A stretch of 61,259 nucleotides of DNA, filler included, from Squatina squatina (taxonomy: Eukaryota): the NCBI GenBank assembly GCA_031763465.1. It is 4 parts of 4 records of this genome, joined end to end, with 100 filler letters (N's around TTAATTAATTAA, not from the genome) between each part and the next. Parts side by side here need not be neighbours in the genome. Positions count along the whole stretch, not along the records: positions 44,042 to 61,259 come from JARFOE010413967.1; 3 more parts are not named here. One strand, given 5' to 3'. The first letter of the stretch is position 1, and the number at the start of each line of letters is the position of its first letter. This document shows, in pieces, positions 9,742 to 61,259 of the stretch. The notes below the pieces were generated by a model that saw only the letters and a list, made by a program, of their open reading frames with translations, was not told where the DNA came from and did not search any database. The translations under genes and the position numbers were made by a program.

Positions 9742-10501
9742 GGCTTGGAATCCCTTTTCCATGGAGTCCTATCTCTCCATTAAAAGCAGCTCCTGTAGTC
9801 AAGATGATCTGCATCGAGGGGTGAAAATCTGTTGTTTGTACATCTCCAGACGCCAAGGCTCTGCAGTGGAGAACCAGAGAGATGTCTTGGTTGTAAAATT
9901 CGAAATACCTAGAGACTCTGCTGGCTTCGTGAATGCAGCCTCCATCTAACAACTCGCCAACCAAAATATTAAGGGCTTCTGTTTCTGCTGTGTCTAGTTT
10001 ACAGTTGGAAGCCATGTCCTTGTTTGGAAATCCTTCAAGCTTCAGGTACCTTGGGGAGTTCAGAGCAGGCAGTTTTGAGAACAAGAACTCCTTGGTGGCA
10101 CCGTCAAAGGTTACCTCGCCACAGACCGAAACCTGCCAAGCAAACCTCGAAGCTGTGGACATCAGCAAAGTCTGCTGACTGATCTGACACAACCAAATCC
10201 TCTTCTCCACCTCTTCCAACTGATCCAGGAATGGAGGACTGTTTCGAGACAACCAGTGGCCCGCCATAGTCAGCAGCAGACATTTTTCCTGAATAATCAG
10301 GAACTGCTCTTTGAAAGGTGAAGCCGGTTGTGATTTAATGGATGGCTGATCATTGGCCTGGGCCAGAAAGAATTCAGAGGCTTCTAAATTGGAGATCGAA
10401 TTATTTTTGAAATAATCGTGGCACTTCTTCCAAAAATTTATCCTCGTCTCCTTCCTTTGCCATTGACCATGTTGCTTCAAATTTTGTAATTCCTGAGTTA
10501 C
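9742..10501 (-). CDS. SPG11: Spatacsin large exon (760 bp)
   Basis: ORF 9710-10507 trimmed to cag| and |gtaagt. Motifs RINFWKKC, LLLTMAGHWL, IWLC, LLDGGCIHEASRVSRYF and LVLHCRALASG match recalled SPG11. Confidence 0.95.
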
Positions 10502-10879
10502 CTGCAAGAGAAAAAGAAATGAAATATTGGGGACATACGTAATATATTGAAATGACTTTCATGTTCGGGTATAAATCCCTTTTTTCAGTTTCCTCCTCCC
10601 ATTTATTCCCTGATCTTTCTGGGCTATGCATCAATCGCAGATGAGGGTAGGCAGGCAACTCATGCACAGGCCTCCGCTAATCTGAACCAGCCATCGAGGT
10701 ACACGAGAATAATCAGCCCGTTATTCTCTCGCTCTCCAACATGCAAGTGCCTGGTCTTCATTTTGCATTTTCCTCAAACGGGAGTTCAACAGTGCAGAGA
10801 ATCCAGGGATAACACTTCCATGGTGCCTCCATGTCATGCCAACATTTTGCCACACTCAGCCTATTACAAGTAAGAGAGA

Positions 10880-14217: not shown

Positions 14218-14317
14218 NNNNNNNNNNNNNNNNNNNNNNNNNNNNNNNNNNNNNNNNNNNNTTAATTAATTAANNNNNNNNNNNNNNNNNNNNNNNNNNN
14301 NNNNNNNNNNNNNNNNN
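14218..14317. other. Artificial spacer 44N-TTAATTAATTAA-44N
   Basis: Identical 100-nt construct occurs three times. TTAATTAATTAA gives stops in all six frames. Confidence 0.97.
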
Positions 14318-28254: not shown

Positions 28255-28740
28255 TCTACACTGGTGTTTATAAGAACATAAGAAATAGGAGAAGGAGTCG
28301 GCCAGTTGGCCCCTTGAGCCTCCTCCGCCATTCAATCAGATTATGGCTCACCTTCCACTTCAACTCCCCAACTTCCCGCACTATGCCCATATCCATTGAT
28401 TCCATTAGTATCCAAAAATCTATCGCTGTCTGTCTTGACTATACTCAACGACTGACCATCCACAGCCCTCTGGGGTAGAGAATTCCAAAGATTCACAACC
28501 GATGTTCCTTTTAAGATATGCGGGCGCTCCTGTGCAGTGTCTCACTGGCTTTTCAATGGGAAAAACTGTGCATGCATGGTATTTTAAATTGGCCACTCAC
28601 CCGGAAGAAATTAAATGGAACATCGTTCACAAACCTTTGAGTGAAGACATTTCTCCTCATCTCAGCCCTAAATGGCTGACCCTTTATTCTGACACTGTGA
28701 GCCTTTGCTCTAAACTCCCTAGCTAGGGAAATCATTCTCT
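28255..28740 (-). mobile_element. CR1 LINE 3' end with an internal unrelated insertion (~28502-28625)
   Basis: HSVRIKGQPFRAEMRRNVFTQR plus the standard 3' UTR; the CR1 match is interrupted in the middle. Confidence 0.75.
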
Positions 28741-28758
28741 CAGTTTATGCACCTCATG

Positions 28759-28858
28759 NNNNNNNNNNNNNNNNNNNNNNNNNNNNNNNNNNNNNNNNNN
28801 NNTTAATTAATTAANNNNNNNNNNNNNNNNNNNNNNNNNNNNNNNNNNNNNNNNNNNN
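28759..28858. other. Artificial spacer 44N-TTAATTAATTAA-44N
   Basis: Same construct as 14218-14317. Confidence 0.97.
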
Positions 28859-32604: not shown

Positions 32605-32966
32605 CACATAAGAAATAGGAGTAAAGTAGGCCATTCGGCACCTTGAGCCTGTTCCGCCATTCAACAAGATAATGGCTGATCTACCTCAACACCATTTTCC
32701 TGCACTATCCCCATATACCTTGATGCCTTTAATATCTATCTTTCACTGTTTTGAATGTACTCAATGACTGAGCCTCCACAGCCCTGTGGGGTAGAGAATT
32801 CCAAAGATTTACCATACTCAGTGAAAAAAATTCTCCACATCTCAGTCCTAAATGGCCTACCCTTTATTCTGAGACTGTGTCCCCTGGTTCTAGACCACCC
32901 AGCGAGGGGAAACATCCTCCCTGTATCTACCCTGTCGAGCCCTATAAGAATTTTGTGTATGTCAGG
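32605..32966 (-). mobile_element. CR1 LINE 3' end
   Basis: KILIGLDRVDTGRMFPLAGWSRTRGHSLRIKGRPFRTEMWRIFFT followed by the 3' UTR. Confidence 0.88.
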
Positions 32967-39365: not shown

Positions 39366-39793
39366 ACCCTAGTACCATTGTGCAATTTTCTGAAATCACC
39401 TGTGCACACAACTCGGGTTGTGGGACATCTTATGGTTACCTCTGGCTGCACCCTAATTTTATACCACATAATGTACAAAAGAAAATATAATGTTTTCAAT
39501 CAGGGCACAGATTTACAAGTGAAACAACACAACATTGATTATAGATAAAAACTATTCATGCTGAATTAAGAAAATTCTGGAAATGCATAGCAAATCAATC
39601 AACATACAAAGTGAAACTTGGCTGTACGTTTTTCAGAATCCCTGATGAAGGATCCCACATGAAACATTAAACCTTTTTCAGATACTAACTGGTGTCTGCA
39701 TTTCCAGAATTTTACGTGCAATGGTAATGTGCTTGTTATGGAACTGTAGATATCTTCATTTGTTAATCTAATGTGGGGGTTTTACATTTCCAG

Positions 39794-41241
39794 ATTGCGT
39801 GAACAGGAGAGGAAAGAGGCAGAAGAAGCTGTCCAAAAAGAGATAGAAGAATGGGAGAAGAATCTACGTGCCCTGGCTGAACCTACTCGCATGGAGACAC
39901 TTTGGGAGATCCCTGCCATTGGACATTTTCTGTGCCTGGCTCAGCAGATCCTTAATTTGCCTGAAATTGTCTATTTTGACCTTGAACGTTGCCTTCTAAT
40001 GCCCCAGTGTAGTAGTTTTCTGGCTAAGATAATGACTTCTTTACTGAGCCCTCACCATCGCCGAGCAACTTTGCACCGGAAGCCACCTTTGCCCTACAAA
40101 ATGTGGGAGGCGGCACTGAAACGAAGAGTACAGCATTGGTATGTAGTGGTCAGCCAGGCAGAAAATCCCAATCTTCAGGCTGAGAAACTGGGCCTTAGTC
40201 CACAGTTTTTCGAAGTTTTGGGGGAAACTAGCCCTTTGGAGATTAAGGCTTTCCACCAAATAACATTTTACAAGCGAGTTTGGCTGCTGAAGGGCTTGAG
40301 TGATTATGTATATGAAACCCAGAAAGAGGTCCAAGATGCAGTTTTAGGGCAGCCCATCCATGAATGCAGGGAAGTGGTATTGGGATATGATTCTCATGAG
40401 AATGCCTATGTCCATTTCCCACAGTTCTGTGGTGCAGACTTGCGGATTTACAAACAATTTCCTCTTCCACCCCCCGAGTTTCCTATTCCACCTATCAAAA
40501 TCTGCAGGATGTCACAACAGAGATCAGAGGAGGCAAAAAGATTTACTTTTGAAAGTCATGAAAAACCAAAAAGTGATGTAAAGGAAACCACTAGCAAAAC
40601 AACAAATGATTCTAAAAAATCCAATGAAGAAGTTGACTCCAGTGACCTGGAGGATTTTTATATAAGGGTGGAATCTGGTCCCCAGTTTCTTTCTCAAGAA
40701 GGTGAAGAAGAAACAAAATTTAACTGTGAATGTAAAAACCATAGAACTTCAGCAGTGAAAAAAGAAAATGTTGGTTCTTGTAAAGAAAACTTAGTGAAGC
40801 CTGCTAGCCCTGGAGAAGTTGTTGGGTATGGGGAACCTCTTAGCCCAGGAGAAATTAGGATAACTGAAAATGGGGAATTCTGTACAGATGACCCTGAGCT
40901 AAGAAAGGGTGTGAAACCGTTGACTGAGAAGGCAATCAAAAGCTGCAAAACACTTGTTAATGGGAGCCATACTGAAAGTTTGGATGTAAGCTGTCTGGTT
41001 GGTAAAATAAATAATATTTCTGCAAAACATTTCTTGGGAAAAATTGAGGAACTTGAGATGGTTAAACTGCATGTCAAGAAAAAGAAGAAGAAGAAAAAGA
41101 AACTGAAAGATGCTATGAATAAGATTTCACAGCTGAGGCCAGATATGGTTTGTCAAAACCCATTGAAGATTCGGAAGCCAGGGATCCAGAAGAAATCCCT
41201 ATTGCTAAAAAAGAAAACGAAACACAAAAAGCACAAGTCTG
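39794..41241 (+). CDS. BRD10: BRD10/KIAA2026 large exon (DDT-like and WHIM-like region, Lys-rich tract)
   Basis: ORF 39771-41246 trimmed to ttccag| and G|gttagt; splices in frame to the 38331-38531 exon. WEIPAIGHFLCLAQQILNLPEI, RVWLLKGL and YVHFPQFCGADLRIY are characteristic. Confidence 0.92.
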
Positions 41242-41559
41242 GTTAGTGGCCTCATGTTTTCTGTTTTGTAAGTAAATGAAAAGATAAGTGAAGCTATTAA
41301 GAGTACGTTTTTGAAATGGTTCATTTCTTGCCCCAAATCTTTAAAGGTGTACATGATATTCATTGCCATAACCGTGTCTGTTTCTTTAGTTCCTGTTACA
41401 TAAATAGAGATTAAGCATTGGGCCCCTTGAATATGTGTATCCAGTTAGCTGCCATAGGTGACCACTGCAAATGCATCATAATGCAGGTCTCAGGTTCAAC
41501 CACTTGGGTGAGATGCCAGAGGTTTGCTGACACCCGTGGAATCTTAACCCAGCACAAGT

Positions 41560-43941: not shown

Positions 43942-44041
43942 NNNNNNNNNNNNNNNNNNNNNNNNNNNNNNNNNNNNNNNNNNNNTTAATTAATTAANNN
44001 NNNNNNNNNNNNNNNNNNNNNNNNNNNNNNNNNNNNNNNNN
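43942..44041. other. Artificial spacer 44N-TTAATTAATTAA-44N
   Basis: Same construct as the other two. Confidence 0.97.
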
Positions 44042-44724
44042 CACCTCTAATACCAGTGGTGGGTTACCAGTAGTACTGGAGGAGAACATACACATCTAAT
44101 GGCAGTGGAGGGGTACCAGTAGTACTGGAGCAGCACAGTCAATAGTAATGTTGTATCAGTGCTACCACTATTACCATAGGAGCACATTCAAGCACAGGTA
44201 TACTATGAGTACCTGAGAAGCAGGGACCCACCTCGTGTAAGTTCAGCATACCATTACTACGCGAGGAGACGGTCACCTTTAATACTGCAGGCCTGGGTTC
44301 TTCACCAATAATGCAGGGTGTGTTTCTGTGCCTGTTCTGGAGAACTTGGTGACCAGGAGTGAATCAAGGGCTGGGTCTTGATGATTAATACCAGGGCAGC
44401 TGCCAGCAGCAGTACAGCAGAAATAGGCTCAGCACTAACACTGTAAGATTTCACGTTCCATTTGAACACAATGTTTTATTTGTGTATTTTTTAAAACTTT
44501 ACAATAATAATTTCACATATTTCTCAATCTGAAGCATCAGGCAAGAATAACAACTTATTAACTTAGAGATCTGAGTCTATTTGTTAAATTACTGTAACTA
44601 ATGCTAATTATGATTTAAGCTGATTGACTCACTTGAGGATTGATGTGTGGATAAATATCGGTTCCATTACATGCACTTGTCAGAGACTTTCATATCCTGC
44701 AGAATTCATCCATTCTCAAAGAAA

Positions 44725-44794
44725 ATGGGGCGCCCAGCTATTCTGCTGATAAAAGAGATTTACTATCCGATTCTCGCAGCTGTCGGTGTGCCCG
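44725..44794 (+). CDS. GPR139/GPR142-like GPCR, exon 1 (MGRPAILLIKEIYYPILAAVGVP)
   Basis: 70 bp from ATG to G|gtgaga, phase 1. Supplies the YYPxLAxxGVP start of TM1; missed by the ORF track. Confidence 0.85.
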
Positions 44795-45223
44795 GTGAGA
44801 CATTGTGACCTGTTTGTTGTTAGTCGGTGTTTACAGTCTCCTTGTTCACTCTTGGATAAGGTAACCGGTTTTCTAGATGTCAGCATTACTCTGTCGGTGG
44901 TGACTGGAACCAACTCATGAACTGTGTGTCTGTACTTGCCATGTTCCCCTTAACCAATAACCTTACTGAAGTTACAAAGCGATTTGAAGCTCTGACAGAA
45001 GAATTTTAGCAGGTTCCGGACCATCTTGTTACCCCGTGAAGAGTGAGCGCTGCAGCAGCTCATTACAATGTGTGGGTGGGTTTTCCAGGTAATGGCTCCA
45101 AAACTAATCCTGTTCTCACACTTGTCCGTGTTGATAATCACACTGAATGATATTAAGTGTTATCTCCATATATATTTCAATCAGACACTGGGACAGTATT
45201 TCTCTCCTCTCTCTTTCTTACAG

Positions 45224-46128
45224 CGAATATGTTGACTATTGTGATTCTCTCCCGAGGAAACTGCGGCCTTTCCAAGTGTATCTCTGTCTACATGGCGGCC
45301 ATGGCAACAGCAGATCTACTGGTCATGATCATCAATGTACTGGTATATTATATTTTCAGTTATCACTTTCCACTGTCCTTCCTATACCAGACTCCTGTGT
45401 GTAAGTTCATTCTGTACATGACTGCTGTCACCTTCGATCTGTCTGTTTGGTTCACCGTCTCCTTCACCTTTGACCGATTTGTAGTTATTTGCTGCCAGAA
45501 GTTTAAAGCAAAGTATTGCACCGAGAGAACTGCAGCCGCGGTTATAACAACGTTCTCTGTTTTCAGTTTTTTCAGGAATATTCCCTTTTTGTTTATCTAT
45601 GGACCTCAGCAAATTATTAACAAGGTGCAGTGGGGCTGCGGGCCAAGTGTTGCTTTTGTATCCTCCCCTCTTGGTGCAGGTTGTATCTGGTTTCACAGCA
45701 TCTGGGTCGTTTGGCTTCCTTTTACTTTAATTGTCTTGTTTAATTCTTTAACCGTCCACCGGATTTTAGTGGCCAGTAGAGCCCGCAGGGGCCTCCAGGG
45801 TCACAGGAGTGAGAATCACAGCGATACAGAGAGGGAGAGCCGAAGGAAATCCATCATTTTACTCTTCGCTATATCGGGCTGTTTTATACTGTTGTGGCTG
45901 ACAGGTGCAGTGACTTTTGTATCTACCAGACTGTCAAACCCCACTTATTACCGAGGTGACCACACAAACCCAGCTTATATCGCCACTGAAATCGGAGCCA
46001 TGCTGAAGTTTTTGAGTTCAATTCAAAACCCGTGCATTTATGCAGCGACACAAGGGAAGTTCAGAGAGGAGCAAAAGAATGTGGTGAAATCTTCCTGGAC
46101 ACTCGTTCTGAGATTAGTTAGAAAATAA
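45224..46128 (+). CDS. GPR139/GPR142-like class A GPCR, exon 2 (spliced product 324 aa)
   Basis: Strong acceptor ctctttcttacag. TM segments, ADLLV (TM2), FDRF (TM3), NPCIY (TM7), conserved Cys; open to TAA at 46128. Exon 1 + exon 2 = 975 nt. Confidence 0.9.
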
Positions 46129-47319
46129 GAATAAAAAGAATCAAGTCAAAGACAAGTTTTTTGTCGCTGAAGTTAAATGTCAGCTTCCTTTTCCATCGTA
46201 GAACCACCTTCTTTCTGCTCATGTGAAAAATGGTCAGTTCTTGTCTGCACATTTCCTCCATTTTGTGTAATGCATTTGATGTCTGTATTTCATTCGATTT
46301 TCCTGCTTCTTTCGCGAAGGAAACACAAGGTATTCTTTGAGATTTAGCACATCTCATGTTCAGGTATCAGAGGTAGCAATAATGAGCTTCAGCAGTGGAG
46401 TGGGACAGGTGAGTAACAGAGGGATCCACCTTACACAGCAGGTACTGGGACCGGGTGTGTCACTTTAAAATCATCAATAACGTTTCATTCAGTGCAGAAA
46501 CAACCAAAGGTCTTGCGATCGCTGATATTGGTAACTTTGCTGGAGGTTTGGTGTGAAGATTGCAGATGCAGTTCTCTCCAAGGGGCACCATTCGGCATTG
46601 GCAAACAGAGCGGGCTCTTGTCACGTGATCAGAGTGAGAATGGAGGAAACAGTCCGAACTTATTCATCGATTTGACCTTTCAACTCTTATGTCCCAGATA
46701 CTGAAATAATATGTCGATGGTGCACCGGCTGGTGACTCTCACTCAGCACAAAGATGGAGTCTGTTCTTGGTTTGTGCTGTCGATAAAAGTGGCATGAGTA
46801 ATATTAATGATATTCTCTCTCAATCTATCTCTTAATCAAAATAATAAACTAATAATAAAAGAAATAATTGTTCATAAAATCATTAACTATTACATTTGAT
46901 GCAAGTTCTCTGCAAAACATACGTTGCCAGAAATTCAAATAAAATCCAAGTGATATTCAGTATCCTGTGCTTGGCTGAACATTTCCAGACGATGGGCAAG
47001 AATCTTTGCTAACTACCATCTTATTATGTGGTCGCACGCTATTGGACATAATAATTGAAAAATCCCAGCAACTTTAAACTGTCCATTGGTGATCTTGCCT
47101 CATTGTGCGAGGAACACCATGAAATGGGAGCTGGTTCTCAATGGGAAGGAGTGGAAGGGTGTGGAAGGACAAGGAGCAACAGGGAGACAAATATTAATTC
47201 CACGAAAACACTGTTGCAGGTGGGTAAATCCAAGAGGAAACCAATAGAATTTTGTATTGCACAGATATGGGCATTGATCACAATAAAAAACACCTTCACA
47301 AAACGCTGGAGACGCCACC

Positions 47320-47850
47320 GTTAGAATACCAGGTACAGATTCGGTCCCTCATTTTGGAAAGATCATTAAATCCACTGAGAGCTGGCAATGTCGATACATC
47401 AGGATGTTGCCCTGGATCAGAACTATACTGATGATGAGCTCAGGCAAGATATTGGAAACTATGTCTACTGGAGCAGGAAACTGGAGCAGCGATAACGATG
47501 AGGAGGGTTAATAGGGGTTTGAAACATTATGAACAGTGTCGACTGAGTAAAGTGGGTGAGATTAACCATCTCGTCCTTGAGTCAGCGATAAAGGATGATC
47601 GGTTTAATGTTCACAAAGGGAATGAGCAGAGATGTTAGCAGACATTTCTTTATGTAAAAGAAGTAGCAGTAGGAATGTTTAGCCTCAGAGAATAGTTAAC
47701 AGAAAATTACATGAATATCTGAAACAGAGGAAATAAATGTCTGTGGAGAGAGCGGAGGACAGTGGGGGTAGTTTTTATTGCAGGATCAAAGAAACCTCTA
47801 CGAAGAGATTGGATCAATAAATATTCTCCCACCCGGGATATTTCTATGAT
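47320..47850 (+). mobile_element. Old, degenerate CR1 3' portion
   Basis: Weak residual similarity (ttagaatac...cagattcggtc, ctactggagcag, acatttcttt, ttctatgatt tail). Boundaries approximate. Confidence 0.5.
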
Positions 47851-49046
47851 TTTAATGTTTTAGCTATGTTGCTGTCATTTTCATTTTATTGGTTTATAAG
47901 ATATCCTAACCCCCGTTGAGATTCTATTAAAAAACCTTTAATAATAAGCTGCTACTAAGGAAGATCGCAGAGGTCCCATTGTTATCCATTCCTTAATGTC
48001 ATACACATTGGCATTTGTCGATAATTTACCTTCATTTTCTAATTAACTTGCCTGTTTCAGCTTTCCCCATCCCATCCCATAATTCCACACCGTTTGATGA
48101 TGTGGAACCTTGTATGTTAATCGGTAAAATCCGACTGGGTCATTCCAACTGCAGGGTGGTGTTTCAGAAACTGCAGTACAGTAGAGAAAGATGGCACATC
48201 GTCCCTCAAACCATGATAACTCCCTATTACATCGATCCTCTCCAGGTGCTCACCCACTCGATCTCTGCTGTCCTTATTTTATGCACTGGGATTATTTCAG
48301 CCACTATCGGATCCTCAGGAATCTTCTCAAATTTAGTAAACTTGCAACAGTAAAGTTGCAAGTAAAGCAGTAAAGCGGGACTCCTATCAGTTCCCATTCA
48401 TTGATCTCACGTTGTCAGTGTGCCTGGATTCCAGGTTGTTATCTTACATGGTTCAACTACAGTTGAAAATCCCTTCATCACTGTTGTTCCAACATCACTC
48501 CTTCAATGATTCACTTGTGATATACTCCGGATATTTATGAAATGGATTGTGTTAATCCTTATAAGCTTCCTGCTAATTTTCTCCATTCCTGAAAAATTCC
48601 CTTACTCCTTAAAAATGCCTCCCGTATAATGATTGTTGCTGCGGTGCATCTCATTCTCTTTTAAAGGGCTCAATAAATTATAATTCCACACTCCGTAACA
48701 CTAGCTTAACTAATTTCTGCTTTTGTACATGAGCTTGTTTCTCCAAGACTTCCATCACTGCCCGAGTCTCACACACACAGCAGGTGGTTTATCCAGAAAT
48801 TGCGGATGTGCTGCCTCAGCTTTCATTCCACTGATATTAATGATAGACAATCAGGCTCAATTGCAGCAGTGTAGATTCATACTGCCCTGGCGCAGGCCAT
48901 TCGGCCTACCGTGCCTCTCCCGGCTCTTTGAAATAGGCATCCAATGAGTCCACCTCTCTGCACTCTCCACATAGATCAGCAAACATTTCCTTTTCAATTA
49001 CATCTCCAATTCCCTTTTTAACATTACTGTTCTTATAAAGAAGTCA

Positions 49047-49635
49047 GCAATGGCCCGGTGGCAGCACTCTCGCCCCTGAGTCACAAAGTCGTGGGTAAAG
49101 TCCCGCTCCAGAAACGGAAACCCAAAATCCATGCACTCTCGCCCCTGAGTCACAAAGTCGTGGGTAAAGTCCCGCTCCAGAAACATAAACCCAAAATCCA
49201 GCACTCTCGCCCCTGAGTCACAAAGTCGTGGGGAAAGTCCTGCTCCAGAAATGTAAACCCAAAATCCATGCTTGATACATCAAAGCAGTAGTGAGGGAGT
49301 GCTGCACTGCCAGAAGTGCTGCTTTTAGAATTAGATTTTTAACCGAAGCCTGCCCTCCCAGGTGTGCATAAATGATCTCTTGGCATTATTTCAAAGTAGA
49401 ACTGGAGAGGTTTCCCCAGAGTCCTGGTCAAAATTTCTCACTCAACGGACACCATTGAATTAGATTTGCTGGTCACCATTGCATTGCTGTTCTTGGGATC
49501 TTTGTGTGCACAAATTGACTGCTACCTTTTCGACATGACAAAAGTGACACATATTGAAAAGTATTTTGTTGGTCGTACTGTGCATTAGAACATCCAGATA
49601 TAGTGAAAGGCGATATAGAAACATAGGACTTTCTC
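49047..49635 (+). mobile_element. SacSINE1-like SINE with a triplicated head
   Basis: Deu core gagggagtgctgcactgccagaagtgct and tail gaaaggcgatatagaaac; three 68-69 bp head units start at 49064, 49133 and 49201. Confidence 0.75.
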
Positions 49636-52009
49636 TTAAATCTGCTTCCATTAGCATGTCAGGCATTGCAGTCCAGATCGTAACAAACCACAGTGCAAAA
49701 CAGTCTCCTAAATTTCCTCCTGGTTCTTCTGCCAACTACATTAAATCTGCATCTTCCGATTACCAACCAAACTGGAAGTGGAAACAATTTCACTCTATTT
49801 ACACAAAGCCTGCATAATTTTGAAAACATCCATCACATCTCCTCTGTCGAGGACTCGTCCCGTTTTTAGCCATGTCGAGAACTTTAATGTAATTCATTTG
49901 TACTAGGAAAGACAAACAGAAGAGGGCATCCACGAGGCATTGAGGGGCGAGGGACTGCCCAACCTGGGAAAATATAGAAGCAAGCAATCAGTGGGCGTGT
50001 GCGATTCAAACTGGAGAAGACTGGACAATCCTGAATAATGTGTTTTCTCCCAGTATCGGGGAATGGGTCACAATGTTCCTAATGGAGAAGGTCTACTTAA
50101 GAGTGGGCCACAGCAAGAGCTTCAGAGGTTCATGTCAGAACTGACGTAGGAAACAACAGGGTTCCGGTTCTATAAACACTGGCTCATCAATTATATTGAC
50201 ACACAGGAACTCAAAGGAAGGAACGAGCCTGAACCAGCTTTCATTTGGTGAAGTTCGGCTGCATTTCGAAGATGGAAGGAAGTTGTTGTGGATGCCTGAC
50301 TGATCCAGTGACTAAACCACTTTCGGGAAAATGGATCAATTTCACTTCCTGTGTTACTATAAGAAAATTACCCACATAGTACGGTCTGTGAATTTAAGGC
50401 CGAGGCTGATAGGAGCTAATGCCCGCATTAAGCAGAAACGTAAAATTCAGAAGTGGATTAATCTAGAGTAAGAGGGATAGAACATAGTGAAAAGTATTAA
50501 AGGGATCTATAATCTTGCCCGTAAACTCAACAGTGATCTTAATGTAAGGCATTAAGTAACGAGTGTGAAAGGAAACATAATACTCTTTAATACAGTGAGG
50601 GCAATTTTTTTACATCTTGATTCATCCAGTTACATACTTAGAACACAAAAAATACGCACCGATTATCAATGACTCGTGTTCATCTGATATTATAAATTTG
50701 TTCTGTGATCATTTTATTTTACTCTACGTTTCACATTTACAGTTCTAGAATTTTTGATAATTAATTGACATGTTCTGTCTCATATAATTTCGAGTGCTAA
50801 TATTGATGTTTCTACTTTCGGAACTGTACATACATATGTGCTACATTGATAATCAAATGAAAAGGTTCGGAGTCTTTGAAATTCAGAATTTACAGCTTTG
50901 AAATTACATGCACAATGTTTGCTGATAATTCACTGTGTGACAATAAACTATCAAATCTCTCAGTACACATGTGCGCAAATCTTTTACAAATAAATAATTT
51001 CACAAAATGGCATCAGGTACAGTGCAACACCTTGACGCGATATAATGATACGATTTTGTTACTGCTAAAGATAACGAAATATAATTATTTAATATATTTT
51101 GCACACCCTTTCCAACAATATTTGCGAGTACCATGGAGCGTAGCTTTTTTCTCTACTTTCCCCAGACACCATGTCTCCACTTGTACCGTAAACCAGCATT
51201 GAGCACTTTCAGATCAAATACAGGACCAGCTGGAGGTTCTTTTACTTAATGCTTATATTCTGTCTCACCTGAATTAACGTGGGCCACTCCCAGAACAGAG
51301 CAGGTTATTTGCAGTGCGGAACTTCTTGTAATTTAAACTGACAGTAAACCTGCGAGTCGCACGTAAAATCCTTGTAGTGAAATTAGGAGCAGTTCCACAA
51401 ACATCACCAAATTTATTCTGGAGTGGGCATTGAACTAATCTGCTCGCTCAGCGATTCTATCAAGTGATTAGCTGGGCCATTCAGTGAACGATGGTTCTGG
51501 ATAGACTCTAATATAACTGGCGTGTTCCCACAGAGGTGAACTTGTCACCAGCAGTCGTGTGATAAGCAATTGATAAATCACCCAAACTTCTCTCTCAATG
51601 TGACCAGTGCTGTAAGTGTGACATTGTGGAGCTCCGTGAAGGCAAGGGTGAGCCGTGAATTAATTACTTTACACTTTATCCTCACGGGTCAACCTGTCAA
51701 AAAAGTTTGATTCAGATTCAGTTTTGGGCTATGAACCATCAAGGTTGGGCTGCGGCAGGAAATGGGAACCGGATCGGTGAGAACAGTTTACCGACAATTT
51801 TAGAAATTCAAATACATATCAGAAACATGGCCACGTCATCACTGAGAGGAGAGGGAACGGAACAAGATGTGCTGATTCCGAACTGCGGATCAGGAGTGAT
51901 TTCTGTGCAATCCATGCAATTGGGACTGAGTGACTGTTGTTCTTCAACAAACCTTAATGTTATAGAAGTTCAGGGTCAACCAAAGGGAACTGTGGAATTT
52001 ACTAACTTT

Positions 52010-52796
52010 TTACACTGAGATGAAAACCAGCGCCGTAGCAACCACACAAAGCCAGATGCGGATATTATAGCCCTCCAGCCACCTCAATACCACTACTCGC
52101 TTCCCATCTTTGTGGTTTTCAACCATCACCTTGGTTACCAGGAACCCCTCAGCCATGAGGGAAGTCTTCGTACGATATATCCAGGAGGTTGTCGGTCCGG
52201 CTCCAAACAACTCGCAGGTTGCAGGCAGAACCTCCTCACATAAAGGGAATGGAGTACTTTTAGATTCGGACCATAAAGCGTGTTTAGATCAAACAAGGTG
52301 TTAGGCTTTGTGGTCTTCTCAGTAAAACCAAACGCAATGCTTCTATTAACAGACGGGGAAACAGCATTTTGGTTAATCCCTTCTCAGCCATGGAAAGCTT
52401 TTTAATCCCCCTGTTAGCATATTGTGCTGAACTGATAGAATCACCTCTTAGATTGTCGATGACAGCAGATGGAAGATAATGGAAACTGTTAAAGTTGAAA
52501 CGCTGTGCTTTGATTGAGTCAGTGGGACCGTGCAGTCTAACTGCCTCATTGGTGTCTGTATAGAGAACTGTAAACTCTCCACTAACCGATAACATGCGCT
52601 GACTTCTCAGCCCACTCGGTACCAAGTTTAACTCTGCAGAGCTCCAGGCTGCATCAAATGTTTTGTTTTTGCCTTCTCTCTTCTTTGATGTAGTTTGTGG
52701 CTATTTTCTCTGAAACCAGGCTCTGAGTGATGATGTAAGCTGCTTAGATTTTTCGCCATGTCCAGTTGGATGACTTCTTTTCTAGTTGTTTCTGCT
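52010..52796 (-). pseudogene. Ecto-ADP-ribosyltransferase (ARTC family) pseudogene, main exon
   Basis: Across frameshifts: QLDMAKN, TFDAAWSSA, YTDTNEAVR, FNFNSFHYL, ANRG, NRSIAFGF, TLFDLNTLYG, FPLCEEVL..CELF, FLVTK, then hydrophobic end IWLCVVATALVFISV. This is the ARTC motif order. Confidence 0.82.
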
Positions 52797-53444
52797 TGTT
52801 GTGATGTATTTATTTACTTTAAGAACCACCACTCGAGTCTGCGAATTTCCGTAAAGCAATGTTCGAGCAATTGCAAATGCAAAGAGGCCTCTAACAGTAC
52901 AAGAGCCAATCTCAAATATACAAGGTCTTCAGTGTACATTTATAACAGTTCTGAGCTGACACAGGCTACCAGTCTTTGGGCGTGGACTTCACCTGGAAAC
53001 AAAGACTGCTAGCTTCTCACTCTTGATTAAAGGGACGTGCTGCCCCCGTGACCCCAGCAGATGGACTGTGCTAATCTAACTGTCCCTGATATCTCAACCT
53101 CAGCCTCGGAGGAACTTTAACTCCATGTAGCTAATCGGTTGTGATGGGTGTTCGCATCTCCTCCTTATCTTCATGTCATTAAGTCAAACTAGGCTGTCTG
53201 TGTCATCCCTTGTGCTCATTAAAATGTTTTGAGAACCTTTGTACCAGGCTGTGTTAGAAGCCTTCAGAATATGTATTCGGGTAAGTATCCCATCAAGCTT
53301 TACAGCAGTGGTAGCCATTTTGTTAACTTAATGTCTAATGTATCCACAGACTTTATATGGTTACTGTATTAAGTATTTAAGCACCGCCACTACAATGTTA
53401 GTTTTTTTTAACTTTAAATCTCTAATCCTTCATGACCCACTTCA
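52797..53444 (-). repeat. 3' LTR (648 bp)
   Basis: Direct repeat of 56979-57619, e.g. shared taagtatcccatcaagctttacagcagtggtag. TATA-like motif near 52940. Confidence 0.9.
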
Positions 53445-53456
53445 GTCCCTCCTTTT
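53445..53456 (-). promoter_or_regulatory. Polypurine tract
   Basis: Minus strand AAAAGGAGGGAC immediately before the TG of the 3' LTR. Confidence 0.85.
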
Positions 53457-53531
53457 GTACCCCTGGTCAGATCAACCTGAAACAGGTGGGACAATCTGAA
53501 GATTCTCTACCCAGTGGCTTCTGCAGGGATC

Positions 53532-55438
53532 CTACTGGAGTCCAGTGAGTTTCGAATCTATGCTATTCTGACATTTTATTACAGTCTTACCGAGGTCCTT
53601 CCGACCTAGGCTGAGCCTAGAAGGGCACCCTTTAAATGGCAAAAGTCCCATACGTGTTTTCCAATCTCTCATCCTCTGTGAGTGTTTTGACTGCTGCAAT
53701 AGCAGGGCGTACCCTTTGGTTGCCATCATCATCTGCACCACCTGAGATCTCAGCAGCCTCTGGTAGCAACAGCAACAGAGACTGACCAACAGAGACTGAC
53801 CAACAGAGACTGATCAACAGGATTGCTATGGATGCAGCAGCCGCTGCCATCCTTCCTACTTCCCACCACTTACACTGCATTCTTGCAGTTTTGGCCCATT
53901 TAACAGCGGAGTCCTTCAGTACTTTGGCAGTACCCTTTGCCAAGTCCACCTGTACCTTTCCCTTTGTGACTGTTTGACGGCTCTGCTCAGTGAATCCCTT
54001 AGTGGTGGCGAGGGCTCTCGCGACGGCCGCCCTGGCTACCTCCCTGGGGCGTCATCTATGTTCCACATACCATTCCACCACTGGCTAAACACATGGCCAG
54101 AGAGGGCCCTGGCTGCCAAGTGGGGCTCTCCTACAGTGAATGAGCCAGTGATCTGTAAGCAGAATATGTGCTTGTTACTACACATCAATTCTCCATAGAG
54201 TAAGCCCATACTACCTGTCCAAAAAGTAACAATGTGTCAGGGGGGCTTGGAGCACCTTGAAGGCTTTCTCGAGGGGCCGGACTGATACTACACTGGTGGA
54301 GTCATTACCGATGGAATTTAGGGTGTTACAGGTGCAGACAATGTAATGTTGTGATTTGGTGCAGCATTCACGTGTGGTCATTAGGAGGGTGCCACCCGGC
54401 CCTGGGGTTATGTACCCTCGAGACCCTACCTGGTATATGATCTGTCTCGTCCAACTCCCAGGGATTCAAATTTGTACCCCCCGGATAAGTACCATTAACA
54501 TGCACTCGTGGCATTATGGTCAGGAACCTAATTGTGGTCAGGAACTAAAGGTTCCTGGTTCTGATCCTGTAAATTTACAAGATCTAGCCCTTTCACAGTC
54601 TTATGTGTGTGTTGTGGTGCAGTACCATATCTTATACCTTCAAACTCTAATCTAACATTATCTATAAAATCCAAGGCCAACATGTCACACGCCCTCCCCT
54701 CAGACTGTGGTTATCAATCCATCTGCAGGGGGTGATATGGTGGCTGAACACTTATGGGTTTCTTATAACCACAAGATGTCAGATTAAAACTTCTTACATC
54801 AGTAAATCCCAATCGCTTAATCATATGGTTAGACAATTCTTGGCAATACTGTCCCTCAAGTCAGGGTTCCCAAATAAATGGGAGTAAGTTAGGCCATCTT
54901 GCTGTGATGGACAGCTGGGCGACTGCCGTGCCATCAATCCCCGTAGTTCCATCATCGTATATGCCTGCAACCGTTATTACAATTATTCGAACCCCAGTCC
55001 GCTGCATGTATTGCTTTAGTCAGGTTACAAATGGTGGATCTCGCACACCTTGGTCGTGTGTGTTTATGCAATGGCCTGGTCCGTAATCCAGACATTAGGC
55101 TTTCTTACCCACTCTTATTTCCCTCCCATGGGGAGTTGCACATACTGCCCAGGGTGTAAACATGTATCTCCGTCGATGTGCATGTTGGGCGCCTCCCATG
55201 CTGTAGCCGTCCACAGTAGAGCAGAGATCACTGTGATGATCCTCTTGGCTGCCATTGCCCCGTAGGTCTATGTGAAACAAAGTAGTGAAGAGAACTGCTG
55301 CTCGCTCTCCTGTTGGCAGAAACAGATTTTACGTTATAAGGTTTTACCTGTGACCATTGTTTCCACCTTCCTTGCCGTGCCATATCTGTACACACCCATA
55401 TCATTCTCATCATTATTACCTGCTATGGCCCCTGCCAT
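53532..55438 (-). pseudogene. env-like type I membrane glycoprotein remnant
   Basis: Across frameshifts and stops: signal-like MAGAIA/VIMMRMIWVC; Cys-rich RECCTKSQHYIVCTCNTL and MCSNKHIFCLQITGSFTVG; amphipathic helix; KWWEV; TM AAAAASIAILLISL; CCCC; tail with YQRL and YALL. It occupies the env position before the PPT. Confidence 0.65.
53773..53814. repeat. 14-bp unit x3 (caacagagactgaY)
   Basis: Direct reading. Removing two units restores the frame LLISLCCCCYQ. Confidence 0.9.
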
Positions 55439-55544
55439 TTTGAGGCCAGCCCGGGACTGATAGTACAGACTTCCTCTTTGGAGGATTGATGTGCAGTAAC
55501 AAGCACACCTTCTGCTTACAGATCCCCGACTCATTCACTGTAGG
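54130..55544. repeat. 91-bp inverted repeat; arms 54130-54220 and 55454-55544; 77/91 identical, no indels
   Basis: Hand alignment. Also visible in the ORF track as PTVNEPVICKQNMCLLLHINSP (+) versus PTVNESGICKQKVCLLLHINPP (-). Confidence 0.95.
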
Positions 55545-56958
55545 GATCTCTCCATCATTGCAATATCCATTACTTTGGCAAGTCCTCTGGTTCCTCACTT
55601 CTCTCACTTCATTCCTGGTCCGCAATCTCCTGTTGCTCCCTCACCTCGGACCTTAATCCTTTCAACCGCTCACACAATGCTACAACATAGCTTCTTATTC
55701 TATCTCTCAATGGTCCTACACCTTCACTGCCTGCTGAGGTTCCCTCCGGGAGCTGCATGGCCCTGCCGCTCATTGCCTCCAATGTCTCAAAATTCCAGTT
55801 CAAATCATGAAACCATTTTCTTAAAATTCAAAACTACTAATCCTTTTCTGTGAACCTAAAACTCTTATGTTGTAGAACTCAACACTTACGACAAGCAGAA
55901 TTTTACTGCAGCCACAAAGTAAGTCGTTTTTTTTCATCATTTAATAGTTTGGTTAACTTCAATAGTTTCAATTTAATTCAGACTAATTATATCCAACATA
56001 CACTTTCCACTCAAAGAAACAGTGCTGTCGCAGCCTGTAGCCTAGGACTTTTAGATAATCTTTTTTTTGAAAAACAACCCCACACGCAAAGTTCTCCTTT
56101 CTGAATTTCATTATCTGACCCTTTTGTTCAACCCAATCTATAATTACTTCTTACTTCTTACTGTTCCATTCGATTGCAGCTGTAAGTTCAAGGTTTAAAG
56201 CTCATCATATTCCCTCCAACAACACATATATATGCATACGCTAATAAACTCAAACAAACACTCTTGCATAATGTTCAAGACAAGAGCACAAAGGGTGAAC
56301 GACTACCAGATCCGTGGACAAAAGTGGGTGGAGATATAACAGACAGCTTTTTCAAGACAGACTTTCAAACCAACACAGTATTTAATCGTTTTAACGATTT
56401 ATACAGGTGTTGAGAAGAAACGCAAACATTCACTCCTTCACCTTACTTGAAACTTTCTTTTTCTTATGCACCAGAAATTCGGTGAGCGACCCTTCGGGGA
56501 CACACTCTTGATCTCTACCAACAATGACTAGAAGTCCTGCTACCACAATTCCCCGTGGGAACGGATTTCCCGTTCTCCTACGACCGTCCCTACAGACGTT
56601 CTGGTGGGAACGATACCACCCACTCCCCAATTCCTACAATCGCGTCCTACAATCGTTCTCGTGGGAAGCGGACCCCTACACTTCTCCTACGGCCATTCTT
56701 TACTTCGCTTGGTTTACCCTCGGCACAATACACCACCCACCCCCACCCACCCTGTTTGCCTAAAGTACCGCATTCTTGGTGCCCGCCATCTTTGATTACT
56801 TCATCCACAGACTCGTCCCTTAGTTTGGATGTTCTCTTCGGCTCACCGGTTTACCGACACAAACGTCGACATCCCTATCTAATGGGTTGTAAATTGAACG
56901 TACTCACCCGTCTTCTGATGTCGACATTCAGTCCGGCACTGGCGGCTGAGCCCCAGAA

Positions 56959-56976
56959 AACCTGCCAACTACGCTA
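56959..56976 (-). promoter_or_regulatory. Primer-binding site, tRNA-Ser type
   Basis: Minus strand TAGCGTAGTTGGCAGGTT versus TGGCGTAGTCGGCAGGAT (complement of the vertebrate tRNA-Ser 3' end): 15/18, 2 nt after the LTR CA. Confidence 0.85.
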
Positions 56977-56978
56977 AT

Positions 56979-57619
56979 TGTTGTGTGTTTAATTGCACTT
57001 TTAAAATCACCAATCGAATCTACGAAGTTGAGTAAAACAAAGATTTATTCGAGCAATTTGCAAGAGAGACGAGGCCTCAAACAGTTCAAGTGTCTCTCTC
57101 AAAGAAGCAAAGTTTGCGAAACTTATTTATAATAGTTCTGAGCTGACACATGTAAGCAATCTATGGGCTTGGATTTCGCCTTCTTACATTCATCACATTA
57201 GGAAAGAAACAAAGATTGTTAGCTTCTCACCCTTGATGCTCGGGATGTTGTGCCCCTAGCAGATGTGCTGTGTTATTCTAACTGCCTGTGACATCTCAAC
57301 CTCAGCCAAGAAGGAACATTAATTCCCTATAGCTCCTCCGCTGCGACGGGTGTTGACATCAACCGAGACTGTCTGTGTCTTATCTTGTGCTCATTAAAAT
57401 GTTGTGAGAACCATTGTATTAAGGATGTATCAGAAGCCTTCAGAATTTGTCTTTGGTTAAGTATCCCATCAAGCTTTACAGCAGTGGTAGGCGTTTTGTT
57501 AGCGTATTGTCTAATGCAGTTACAGACTTTATGTGGTCACGATATTAACTAGTTAAGCATTACCACTGCAAAGTAAGTTATTTTACTTCAAATCCCTAAT
57601 CCTTCATGTCCCAAATTCA
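56979..57619 (-). repeat. 5' LTR (641 bp)
   Basis: Homologous to 52797-53444. Minus-strand TATAAATA at ~57124-57131 and AATAAA at ~57044-57049. Confidence 0.9.
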
Positions 57620-57678
57620 GTGAAAGTCAATAGACTGCGAGATGTAAATGGATGAGGAGAGTCAAGGATTATAAACAT
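57620..57678 (-). pseudogene. Probable signal-peptide part of the ART pseudogene, separated by the LTR element
   Basis: Reads MFII/LTLLIHLHLAVY*LS (one frameshift, one stop) and would continue into AETTRKEVIQLDMA on the other flank. Confidence 0.5.
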
Positions 57679-58015
57679 CAGTTTTTTGGAAGCAGCAACA
57701 GTTTACGGTAGCACAATGGAGATATCTGGACCAATTATATGACAGATGTGAGTTCAAATACCACCAGTACAGTTTGTCAATATAAATGTAGTTAATTTCA
57801 ATAAATCTATAGAATTAATGGCTACCATGAAACTACAGTATTGTCAGAAACACAACTTATGGATGGAAACATACCGTCCTTATCTTTCTGACGATATGTG
57901 ATTCAAGATCCATAGTAATATGTTGAGCCTGAACTGGGCTCACAAACAACTCAGTTTCAACAAATGACTGCGAAAAAGAATAAAGCCTAACAGATGAAAT
58001 GGGAATGAACTGGGC

Positions 58016-58072
58016 ATCTGGATAGCTCAGTCAGCAGAACATCAGACTTTTAATATTTTCCTTGTTCGGGCA
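58016..58072 (+). pseudogene. tRNA-Lys(TTT) pseudogene, internally deleted
   Basis: ggatagctcagtcagcagaacatcagacttttaat...tgttcgggc matches tRNA-Lys(TTT); the 3' anticodon stem and T-arm are missing. Confidence 0.8.
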
Positions 58073-59244
58073 TTGCAAATTTACATTGCGATTCTGATCA
58101 AAAAATATCAGCAGTTCAAAAAGGCCATTTACCCCATTGAGCCTGATTTCCCATTTCATGAGATCAGTGACTCAACTCCATGGAAAACCATTTCCCCCAT
58201 ATTGCTTATGTAAACAAAAACCGCGCTAAATCCGGCAACTTAATGCTTAATTATATAATTTCTGGTTTCAATGTGAAAAGTTCACTGTTTGTGACAGAGA
58301 CATTTTTGTCGGTGCCACGTCATCGCAGATTCACAGATTGATACAGTATTGAAGGGGATTTATTCGGCCCATCGTGTCTGTGCCGGCTCTTGGGCAGAGA
58401 TATCCCATTAATCCCGCCCCCTGCTTTTTCCCCACGGCGCAGTATTTTCTGCCTTCAAGTAATGTACAATAAATGGTCAAACTTTAAAAGGAACACTATG
58501 AGTTGGAGATTCAGATGCACAGTTTGGGCCACAAACTCTGTCAGAGGTTACAACCGTTCCTGCTTCATCGCCCTTTGTGAGGCAGGTCTGACGTTCCAAT
58601 CAAAATTCTTTCCGAATAAAAGTGGCCACAGTCCCAGAATTAGACTGGTCACGTGGGGACCGATAGCAGCCGGTCGATGTCGAGGAAGAACCAAAGGTGA
58701 CATGAACAAACAGCGATTTGTTGTGATCTGGAATGCAGTGCCTAAAAGGGCGGTGGCAGCAGATTCAATCGTAACTTTCAAAGAGAACTGGATCAACACT
58801 TGAAATGAAAAATAAATTACCTGGCTATGAGGAAAGAGCAGGGGAGTGAGATTAATCGAATAGCTCTACCAAAGAACCTGCACAGGCACGATGGGCAGAA
58901 TGACCTCCTACTGTGTGGAATAATTCGATAATTGTATGATTCTATGATAAATATCCCGATGAGAAAGATCTGATTCGGGAGATTAGGGGAGGGAAATTAG
59001 CGAGCTCCTCAAGAACGTTAAACACTTAATAAATCGATTTTCTGTGTGACTTGTGTGGTTTAATTCAGTGAATTGTCTGTAAATGGCAACAGAGAAACGG
59101 ATTGAGAGTTTTTAGATTGGACAGATGTTATGTTGTTTGAGGTCAATGAGCCTTCTGCCTTCATTTTCAGAGGACCAGAATGAGCCAAACTTTCTTTGAA
59201 CCTCTGTGGGGAAATTTGGGGATGTTGACCAACTTGCTCAGTGC

Positions 59245-59332
59245 GGCAGCCTGGCCGAGTGGTCTTAAGCCCCTGTGTTCAGGTCACAGTTCTTCTCCTT
59301 TGGAGACCTGGGTTCGAATCCCACTGCTGACA
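59245..59332 (+). tRNA. tRNA-Leu(CAG)-derived gene, diverged, probably a pseudogene
   Basis: A box tggccgagtgg, anticodon arm ctgtg-ttCAGgt-cacag, long variable arm, B box ggttcgaatcc. Small insertions and stem mismatches. Confidence 0.75.
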
Positions 59333-59449
59333 TAGAGAGAGTTTCAGTTTTATTTTATGGAATTAGTTGCACCTGCTTCTTCGGCCCAATTGATTTGCTT
59401 CTGTCAGTAAACTAACACCGGGATTTTTCTCCTTAAACAGAAAAGGAGA

Positions 59450-59830
59450 AGGGGAGACCTATTAGATTTATTTCAAATTATGAGGGATTTGAATTGTGCA
59501 AGTCATGTGAAATGGTTCCCTCTCGCGTGTGGACCGACAACGAGAGCCCATAGATTTAAAATAATAGGCACAAGATCGTGTTGGGACATCCGGAGATTCT
59601 TTTCAGGCAGAGGGTTTTTAAGAACTGTTGTACATAACCTGAAGGCAAGGTGGAGTCAGATTCCATAGGAACATTCAAAAGGTAATTGGACATGTATTAG
59701 AACTAATTAGCAGGGTTATGGGGAAAAGCTGAGGTGTGGAACTAAATTGAACAGCTGTTTAAAGAGCCGGCACAGGTAGGACAGGCCGCATGGCCTCCTT
59801 CTGTGCTGTAAGATTCCGTGATGCTAAGAC
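59450..59830 (+). mobile_element. CR1 LINE 3' end
   Basis: TRAHRFKIIG..DIRRFF plus the UTR ending ggcctccttctgtgctgtaa. Confidence 0.75.
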
Positions 59831-60355
59831 TTTCTGACTCTATGACTCCGGTCTCTGGTGTATCCCCCATTCTCATCACACCACAAGTAGTCTCCCATAA
59901 CCCGAGCCTCACTCGCTGAAATTTCCTCTCCCAAACTCACTGCCTGAAAGGGTGGTGGAGGATGAAACTCTCATCACATTTAAAAAGTACTTGGATATGC
60001 TTTTGAAGTGCTGGAACCCATAAAGCTCCGGACCAGGAGCTGGAATGTGGGGTTCGACTGGATCGTTTTTCTTCGGCCGACAGAGATACAATGGGCCGAA
60101 TGGCCTCCTCCTGTACTTTAAACTTCTCTGATTCTTCGATTCTATGGTTTATCAAGCTGTGTGGAACACTTTACTGAATACGTGTGCTGGTGTCTGTTTC
60201 TTACATTGAATAAACGAGCGCACCTGGTGCTTTTCTCCCTAATACTAGTGAGCTAATGAGACAGACTTTATAGCAAGGTTCTGTTTACTGTGAAAAAGCA
60301 AAGAAAATAATAAATCTGGAATTATCCAGACTGCTGCCAACGTTAAAAACAACTA

Positions 60356-60410
60356 TGACCCGAAAGTGATTTGAATAGGTAAACGTTTATTCAGCTTTCA
60401 GACGTGTTAG
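60356..60410 (-). pseudogene. tRNA-Trp remnant, 5' end missing
   Basis: tgacccgaaagtgatttgaa...tcagacgtgtta aligns ungapped to the reverse complement of recalled tRNA-Trp(CCA), 37/55 by hand. A T5 run lies 6 nt downstream on minus (60345-60349). Confidence 0.55.
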
Positions 60411-60474
60411 CAGAGTGGTTAGAATTCGGGGATTTTACCCACCCCGGGTTCAGGTTCGATTCCTGGACAGGGAA
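60411..60474 (+). pseudogene. tRNA-Glu remnant, 5' end missing
   Basis: agtggttagaattcgg...ggttcgattcctggacagggaa matches tRNA-Glu from the D-arm to the 3' end; anticodon loop degenerate. Confidence 0.7.
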
Positions 60475-61093
60475 AAGATATTTGTAACACTTGTTTATTC
60501 AAAGCTTTATGACATTAATTATTTGCATCTAATGTGAAAAATGTTTGTTTTAATCATCATTAATTAACAGATAATATTATTTTGCAGAATAATAGAAATG
60601 CTAACATGGTCAATGCGGTACAGTCCAAGCTTCAATAATTTATTCTGCTCTTTGCATGTATTCAATGTTTATCCTTGTCACATTTTAATCACTGTATATT
60701 CGGAGCCCGGTTTGAAATGTTCAGCACTTGTGTCTCCAGAAATCTGGGCTAACATTCGTTAAACTTAACAGGATTGGCTATTTCGGAGAAAAATAATATT
60801 TGGAACATAATATTTCTAGAAAGTGCACTGACCTATCTTTCTCAGCGTCAAAGTTGATGACTATGAGAGAAGGTGCCTAACGGGAACACAGAAATACTCC
60901 CACCTCATGGAAAGTTATTGCCCATTATTCTAAGTAAGGCGCAGGTCCAGGACATTAATGATATACTTTCAATCTCACTGGCACTGAGGTTCAAACAGAC
61001 AACTTCTCCGGAAACACCTGCAGCTAAACGTTCACTGCTGAAGTGTTCAGCGAGAATGCTGAAATCCGTTACTGTGCGGTCGATAAAGCGCCG

Positions 61094-61167
61094 ATTTCCC
61101 TAATGTAGCGGTGATCACGTTCACCTGATTTTGCGAAATGTTTTCGGTTCGTGCCTGGGCGGAATCA
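61094..61167 (+). pseudogene. tRNA-Val pseudogene
   Basis: tttccctaatgtagcggtgatcacgttcacct...gcgaaa...cggttcg..ctgggcggaatca is colinear with tRNA-Val; anticodon loop destroyed. Confidence 0.8.
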
Positions 61168-61259
61168 TTATGTCAGGGAATATGTTTTTCTCTGAGAAAC
61201 TAGCAGTGCTGTTAAATGTTAAAAAGGTTCACCAGGTTCCTGGTGTAATAAGCAATGAA

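Follow-up and report, generated by a model that had tools for sequence, protein, structure and literature searches.

An old defective provirus of Squatina squatina with a decayed envelope gene, probably of the F type

A minus-strand long terminal repeat (LTR) element at 52797..57619 of a 61,259-nt stretch of Squatina squatina DNA (assembly GCA_031763465.1; the whole stretch is called the window below) raises the question of how an insertion that keeps an env gene but so little of pol arose, and what kind of envelope it encoded. A first-pass annotation made from the sequence alone had described it as an env-only element primed by tRNA-Ser, with an envelope resembling that of lokiretroviruses. 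The explanation that we favour, at a probability of roughly 0.68, is that the element is what remains of an ancient provirus, now defective, from a retrovirus-like lineage whose envelope protein (Env) was of the F type (class I). As a dead deletion derivative the copy is nothing unusual, and it is the envelope family that carries the interest.

Anatomy of the element

The LTR element is real. It has an LTR pair, a primer-binding site (PBS), a candidate splice donor and acceptor, a polypurine tract (PPT) and a decayed env-like gene. All its features are given on the minus strand unless stated otherwise. The 5′ LTR (56979..57619; 641 nt) and the 3′ LTR (52797..53444; 648 nt) both have TG...CA ends. 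The former carries TATAAA at 57131, AATAAA at 57049 and ATTAAA at 56993, and the latter TATAAA at 52944 and AATAAA at 52814. They were paired by blastn at an E value of 1e-101, with 488 of the 616 aligned columns identical (79%), and their divergence (Kimura two-parameter distance, K2P) is 0.245 +/- 0.023. The PBS (56959..56976) lies 2 nt past the 5′ LTR and agrees at 15 of its 18 positions, in a comparison by eye, with the 3′ end of human tRNA-Ser as printed in PMC3299991. The candidate major splice donor (56902..56908, donor at 56908/56907) is the sole leader match among the four donor consensus matches of the whole element, and an 11-nt purine run directly before the 3′ LTR (53446..53456) represents the PPT. 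The candidate env splice acceptor (55268..55296), a pyrimidine tract with AG at 55270-55268, is one of the 4 among 129 YAG sites that share the top pyrimidine count (13/18). The cis signals and the tRNA-Ser primer proposed in the first-pass annotation were thus recovered, and three features absent from it were added: the candidate acceptor before the env ATG, an env-derived inverted copy and the lack of a target-site duplication (TSD). At 57062-57100 there is also a possible R-region hairpin, whose 9-bp stem closes where transcription is predicted to start; this point lies about 30 nt past the TATA box, with AATAAA following shortly after. A sigma-70 promoter scan was discarded as irrelevant to a eukaryotic LTR.

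The env gene (53532..55255) is decayed, being broken by stops and several frame changes. An ATG 13 nt past the candidate acceptor opens a signal-peptide-like stretch with a hydrophobic peak at 55240, and a transmembrane (TM) hydropathy peak at 53850 is followed by CCCC at 53777 and a tail. Both the signal peptide and the TM segment that are expected of a lokiretrovirus Env were therefore found, the TM segment of the best homolog (P0001) lying near residue 306. Between them lie a putative short N-terminal subunit and fusion-peptide region, then a helix end with G.xP, a Cys-rich core and pre-membrane helices, and the previously proposed order of Cys-rich region, helix, Trp, TM and CCCC was confirmed. 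A 14-nt tandem repeat (53773..53820, 3.4 copies, unstranded) lies within the TM-coding stretch.

A phmmer search of 1.84 billion representatives produced five matches, three of which are real: P0001 (E 2.4e-15), P0004 (E 1.1e-6) and P0005 (E 3.5e-5). The remaining two, P0003 (a Kelch/galactose-oxidase protein) and P0002 (with a weak lectin match only), were dropped as chance Trp-repeat matches. The three homologs are colinear with the element over 54707-53821 in two alternating frames, with 29-52% identity per segment and several stops, and word-indexed searches returned none of them, P0001 only, or P0001 and P0005. The env anatomy 5′ of 54710, where no homolog was retrieved, is accordingly putative. 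P0001 is an uncharacterised catshark protein, the species being named as Scyliorhinus torazame. It is annotated as an open reading frame (ORF) of 362 amino acids (aa) on a 113-Mb contig and keeps the TM segment without the N-terminal part. It may be a younger copy of the family or a gene taken over by the host, and co-option is worth checking.

Upstream of env, about 460 nt (55330..55790) can be read in one frame with six stops as the C-terminal remnant of an integrase. Four motifs follow each other in this frame: E.M.GR.M.LP at 55779, a helix (Y..L...L) at 55689, KW.GP at 55440 and W...Q[IV]KP, here W...QVKP, at 55365. The ordered chain was found in 0 of 3000 dinucleotide shuffles (the first motif singly in 0, the others in 1218, 196 and 22 of 3000) and a two-motif test gave 0 of 2000, values that overstate the significance because the motif regions were picked after a by-eye resemblance. 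This selection, together with the failure of Pfam, NCBIfam and PDB sequence searches to detect the stub, speaks against the interpretation, and the stub is best regarded as motif-level evidence. With regard to an integrase of the loki/CGIN1 type, the four motifs match the printed lokiretrovirus Pol ends, but similar C-terminal motifs are present in other LTR-element integrases. In the accessible part of PMC7947760 and its supplement, lokiretrovirus Pol proteins end in the same motif series, immediately followed by the splice acceptor and env, and the arrangement in Loki-Sri is alike. The reading of 55609-55827 as a Gag N-terminus was rejected since this stretch carries integrase motifs.

The leader (55800..56958; about 1.16 kb) exhibited no detectable coding homology: no Pfam family was found in any of its three minus frames, and the six-frame Pfam scan of the interior gave one weak Synaptobrevin match (E 0.099), which was rejected. 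Motifs of the YxDD, CCHC and protease types do not occur in any of the six frames of the element, and the sole HHCC-like match lies on the opposite strand and contains stops. Rfam gave no match and the predicted fold of the leader RNA was not significant (z -1.6). The GC content of the leader falls from 0.50 in its first half to 0.34 in its AT-rich second half and then jumps from 0.26 to 0.52 near 55800, where the integrase homology starts. We take this step, at the 3′ end of the leader, as the probable deletion junction. In view of the ordered integrase motifs before env and of the GC step, the element is best read as an old internal-deletion derivative. The earlier claim that the element lacks recognisable gag, protease, reverse transcriptase (RT) and integrase motifs holds for the YxDD, CCHC and protease motifs but not for the integrase, and the label env-only has to be abandoned since pol homology, which the first-pass annotation had itself named as grounds against its reading, stands upstream of env at the motif level, albeit without database detection. 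Instead of the 1.4 kb of featureless sequence and 1.9 kb of env described previously, the interior comprises about 1.16 kb of leader, about 0.46 kb of integrase remnant and about 1.7 kb of env. As a separate observation, the first half of the leader (56400-56978) has an observed/expected CpG ratio of 0.99, compared with 0.38-0.61 in the rest of the element and 0.52 in the flank, an unexplained resistance to CpG decay.

Inside the integrase remnant, between its second and third motifs, lies a 91-nt segment (55454..55544, plus strand) that is the reverse complement of 54130-54220 in env. The two copies are 85% identical with sharp ends, and their alignment score of 126 compares with a shuffle maximum of 43. 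Both match P0001 and P0005 (the inserted copy on the plus strand), which indicates that the 91-nt piece is native to env. The arms differ by a K2P of 0.175 +/- 0.048, not above that of the LTRs, and their mismatches are spread over the codon positions as 1, 7 and 6, without a third-position bias. From this divergence and this spread we infer that the insert dates from about the time of integration or later, and that no coding constraint acted on it as it decayed. The use of the 91-mer as a marker of the deletion junction was rejected because integrase motifs flank it on both sides.

The class of the envelope fusogen

The Env is likely to be an F-type class I fusogen, a judgement from sequence comparison in which we gave residue-level colinearity more weight than the feature score of the ESM Atlas. 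Five motifs that recur in the five lokiretrovirus Envs examined were scored on P0001 as an ordered, spaced chain, which reached 100, against 52 +/- 6 for shuffles (maximum 83, 0/600), that is about 8 standard deviations (SD) above them, with one of the five motifs placed at residue 88, away from its by-eye position. The reversed P0001 scored 50 and all five control proteins 43-65. A looser Env pattern, defined post hoc, was found in 0 of 20000 shuffles. As with the integrase, the shuffle values overstate the significance, the motif regions having been selected once the resemblance had been seen. Around 55000, a basic residue and a mildly hydrophobic run form a candidate cleavage region, and the distance from the candidate site to G.xP is about 124 codons, compared with 121 in Loki-Sri by hand count. 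The absence of a CKS17/CX6CC gamma-type signature, noted in the first-pass annotation, was confirmed: neither the immunosuppressive domain (ISD) nor CX6CC was matched in the six frames or in P0001, nor was there a Pfam match of the TM family. The protein would most likely have operated as lokiretrovirus and paramyxovirus F do: anchored by its TM segment after entry through a signal peptide, it would have been cleaved into two subunits, carried a fusion peptide at the N terminus and refolded through its helices.

To the reservations about the integrase stub, several results have to be added that weigh against a provirus with an F-type envelope. No R-x-[KR]-R furin site was found in any minus frame (the sequence is decayed and P0001 lacks the region), the candidate fusion peptide remained below the hydropathy cut-off of 1.3, and heptad periodicity was not significant in any of three P0001 segments (shuffle fractions 0.15-0.26). 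The env gene has no Pfam, NCBIfam or PDB sequence match. In the ESM Atlas, the top 30 matches of P0001 were all class III, either Monjiviricetes clusters (PF24664) or rhabdovirus G clusters. PF00523 was absent among the Atlas rows shown after class III had been skipped, and was not matched in Pfam either. Finally, no TSD survives, which touches the integrity of the LTR pair and is considered in the next section. Among the related searches, NCBIfam matched none of five proteins, and none of six PDB sequence searches gave a relevant match, those to armadillo-repeat proteins and HflX being due to chance.

With the same anatomy, the envelope could instead be a class III fusogen that works uncleaved through internal fusion loops and was acquired from an RNA virus of Monjiviricetes-like affinity, with a G protein of the chuvirus or rhabdovirus type. 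The Atlas ranking fits this, as do the missing furin motif and the missing strong fusion peptide, and there is a precedent in Anakin of mosquitoes, which captured a chuvirus envelope gene according to the accessible text of PMC12440569. The best Atlas match reached 0.95 (194/256 features), a level attained by about 1 in 100 shuffles, and once class III was skipped, unrelated arenavirus, coronavirus and infectious salmon anaemia virus proteins still reached 0.88 and Baculo_F 0.82, which suggests that much of the class III signal is generic. Moreover, the Atlas covers only clusters of at least 50 members, so F-type retroviral Envs may be missing there. P0001 itself has no Pfam match, no chuvirus endogenous viral element is listed for Chondrichthyes in PMC11089739, and the lokiretrovirus motif chain stands far above its shuffles. 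We consider a class III Env unlikely. Structure prediction favoured neither side: the two AlphaFold models were of low confidence (mean pLDDT 35.5 and 32.1), Foldseek on BFVD found no match for either at E <= 0.001, and the best VIA-align hit of a low-confidence model (Z 6.0, helical hairpins) speaks neither for nor against any fold. The lokiretrovirus-like, F-like Env of the first-pass annotation is supported by the motif chain, while the Atlas puts class III first and folding lends it no confidence.

Origin of the defective copy

An F-type provirus of this kind would derive from a parent with the order LTR-PBS(Ser)-leader-gag-pol-env-PPT-LTR, whose env would have been expressed from a spliced mRNA with the donor after the PBS and the acceptor just past the end of pol. 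A single large deletion, starting where the leader ends and reaching late into the integrase, would have taken out gag, protease, RT and RNase H together with the core of the integrase. Template switching, or a rearrangement at a later time, may have placed the reversed copy of the 91-nt env piece in the integrase stub. Since the deletion left all cis signals, a helper acting in trans could have packaged and integrated the deleted RNA, complementation in trans being an established route (PMC8922424). The copy is now inert; it has decayed neutrally and no protein is made from it.

The lack of a TSD bears on whether the two LTRs belong together. No 4-6 bp pair with at most one mismatch was found when 0-3 nt of slippage was allowed, and the probability that a TSD was lost by decay (at least three mismatches in five at the LTR divergence) is about 0.06, so that the LTRs may come from two insertions. 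The element would then be a chimera of two related insertions, produced by ectopic recombination or assembly collapse, and the supposed deletion would be the junction of two elements. Transitions and transversions between the LTRs are about equal (63 vs 65), there are three block indels, and the source assembly is fragmented. The rate that PMC4422223 assumes for sharks leads to an implausible age of about 560 million years (My), compared with about 56 My at the mammalian rate quoted in the same paper. Such a chimera is nevertheless very improbable: the two LTRs have diverged to a rather similar extent from end to end (identity per 80-nt block 0.69-0.86), the element lies within the gap-free stretch 44042-61259, whereas many gaps occur elsewhere in the window, and the inverted insert appears to be derived from the element's own env. 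The insertion is in any case old, its calendar date depending on the assumed rate.

The first-pass annotation had offered two origins, an internal deletion or a satellite that supplied envelope to a gag-pol-only partner, and only the former agrees with the evidence, no positive support having been found for the latter. A satellite maintained in a bipartite system would account for the splice signals and env being kept together with intact-looking cis elements. It would hardly have held on to an integrase stub that is without function and carries an inverted insert, its env has stops and frame changes, and neither a gag-pol partner nor another copy of the element was seen within the window. The insert is more readily explained by a single rearrangement than by a satellite under lasting selection, and we regard the bipartite system as the least credible of the explanations. 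That the copy belongs to a non-autonomous subfamily which kept env and was multiplied in trans, supplying nothing needed, is less far-fetched, though still unlikely. It would be the mirror of the gag-only BHIKHARI, which shows that single-gene lokiretrovirus derivatives can spread, every cis signal is kept, and the established complementation route applies here as well. In contrast, neither the LTR nor the interior was found again in the 61-kb window, which is a weak test of copy number, and the age of the inverted insert does not exceed that of the LTR pair. Two tblastx matches (24-25 bits) to other parts of the window were discarded, one of them being below shuffles when tested at the nucleotide level. 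BHIKHARI-1 (bioRxiv 10.1101/2024.03.25.586437) is likewise a non-autonomous LTR element of the lokiretrovirus type and depends on a partner for its pol functions, but its gag is intact and it is multicopy and recent, whereas the S. squatina copy is old, with a dead env and an integrase stub.

Deletion of gag and pol with retention of the 3′ end of pol, the splice acceptor and env is known from mouse Fv4 and chicken EAV-HP, with Envs of the gamma or alpha type. The same parts were retained in the element described here, which is decayed, while Fv4 and EAV-HP are expressed.

Relation to known lineages and surroundings of the element

With respect to the pol-env layout, the element is lokiretrovirus-like, and on present sequence evidence probably so in Env type. 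The comparisons in this section refer to the accessible portions of the papers cited. The five Env motifs of lokiretroviruses (PMC7947760) are colinear with P0001 at similar spacing, and neither Env is gamma-type. On the other hand, lokiretrovirus Env has RXKR, of which none survives in the element; the N-terminal subunit is about 85 aa long in the element and about 117 in lokiretroviruses; P0001 lacks the two cysteines that follow HYLC; and P0001 has HHWWD before the TM segment, whereas HWWD was not found in the portion of the supplement searched. The tRNA-Ser PBS string was not found in that portion either. The dual RNase H (tether and RNase H) and the capsid-fold Gag regions of lokiretroviruses are absent from this copy. 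With RT and RNase H lost and with an Env that departs from theirs in several respects, the element cannot be claimed as a lokiretrovirus.

F-like envelopes are not confined to lokiretroviruses, as the foamy virus Env is reported to be structurally linked to paramyxo/pneumovirus F (PMC11468914). Characterised foamy-like endogenous retroviruses (ERVs), however, use tRNA-Lys or tRNA-Asn primers (PMC5512871), in contrast to the tRNA-Ser of the element. Among the env-carrying Ty3/gypsy and BEL/Pao elements there are LTR elements with RNA-virus-like fusogens of class I (F-type) or class III (gB-type), but their hosts are invertebrates, and the study found vertebrate genomes to be without intact homologous elements (bioRxiv 10.1101/2023.10.26.564294). 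Shark ERVs, among them CmiERV (PMC4422223), come from the same probable host group, in which SnRV-like and epsilon-like lineages are known. The shark ERV envelopes described in bioRxiv 10.1101/2021.11.23.469661 and PMC11521997 are gamma-type or filovirus-like, whereas the element has neither ISD nor CX6CC. The survey of anamniote Envs was restricted to gamma and beta types, and PMC11521997 describes filovirus-like ectodomains in shark retroelements. Our literature search, largely without subscription papers, gave no description of this env family and no vertebrate retrovirus-like lineage with a class III Env.

F-like Env is known from lampreys, bony fish, amphibians and reptiles, and none of the six chondrichthyan genomes screened by RT, S. 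torazame included, was positive (PMC7947760). An env family with a catshark homolog, a loki-like integrase end and a tRNA-Ser PBS hints at an F-like env lineage in cartilaginous fish. There is about an even chance that this is an unsampled chondrichthyan lineage whose F-type Env is distinct from that of teleost lokiretroviruses. This is likelier than a vertebrate retrovirus-like lineage of cartilaginous fish that combines a class III (chuvirus/rhabdovirus G-like) Env, a spliced mRNA and loki-like pol, which we consider improbable. The LTR, env and integrase stub can serve as probes for full-length relatives and for their placement by RT, and such relatives would close the gap in cartilaginous fish or else point to a fusogen captured on a separate occasion. 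The lokiretrovirus papers argue for independent envelope captures by retroviruses.

As for its surroundings, the window contains artificial N-TTAATTAATTAA-N spacers at 14218-14317, 28759-28858 and 43942-44041 and therefore consists of at least four separate scaffolds joined together, so that gene neighbourhoods across the spacers are not real. A cartilaginous-fish host agrees with the best env homolog and with repeat types that look shark-like. On the scaffold of the element, about 6.7 kb from it, lies an intronless ORF of 323 aa for a rhodopsin-family G protein-coupled receptor (45157-46128, plus strand, E 7e-22). Tandem repeats of 69 nt (three copies, 94% matches) and 49 nt (two copies) were found at 49062-49271 and 44042-44137, respectively. 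Elsewhere in the window, an ORF of 498 aa (39750-41246, plus strand) contains the KIAA2026 helical domain (E 2e-56). Another of 282 aa (9710-10558, minus strand) has no Pfam match; it appears to resemble a spatacsin (SPG11) exon. Positions 1-1436 are a tandem array of about 80 copies of an 18-nt unit, with an open repetitive frame of 229 aa at 178-867. Three matching blocks (78-84%) between 28296-28744 and 32625-32924, 4.2-4.3 kb apart, are probably two copies of a dispersed repeat.

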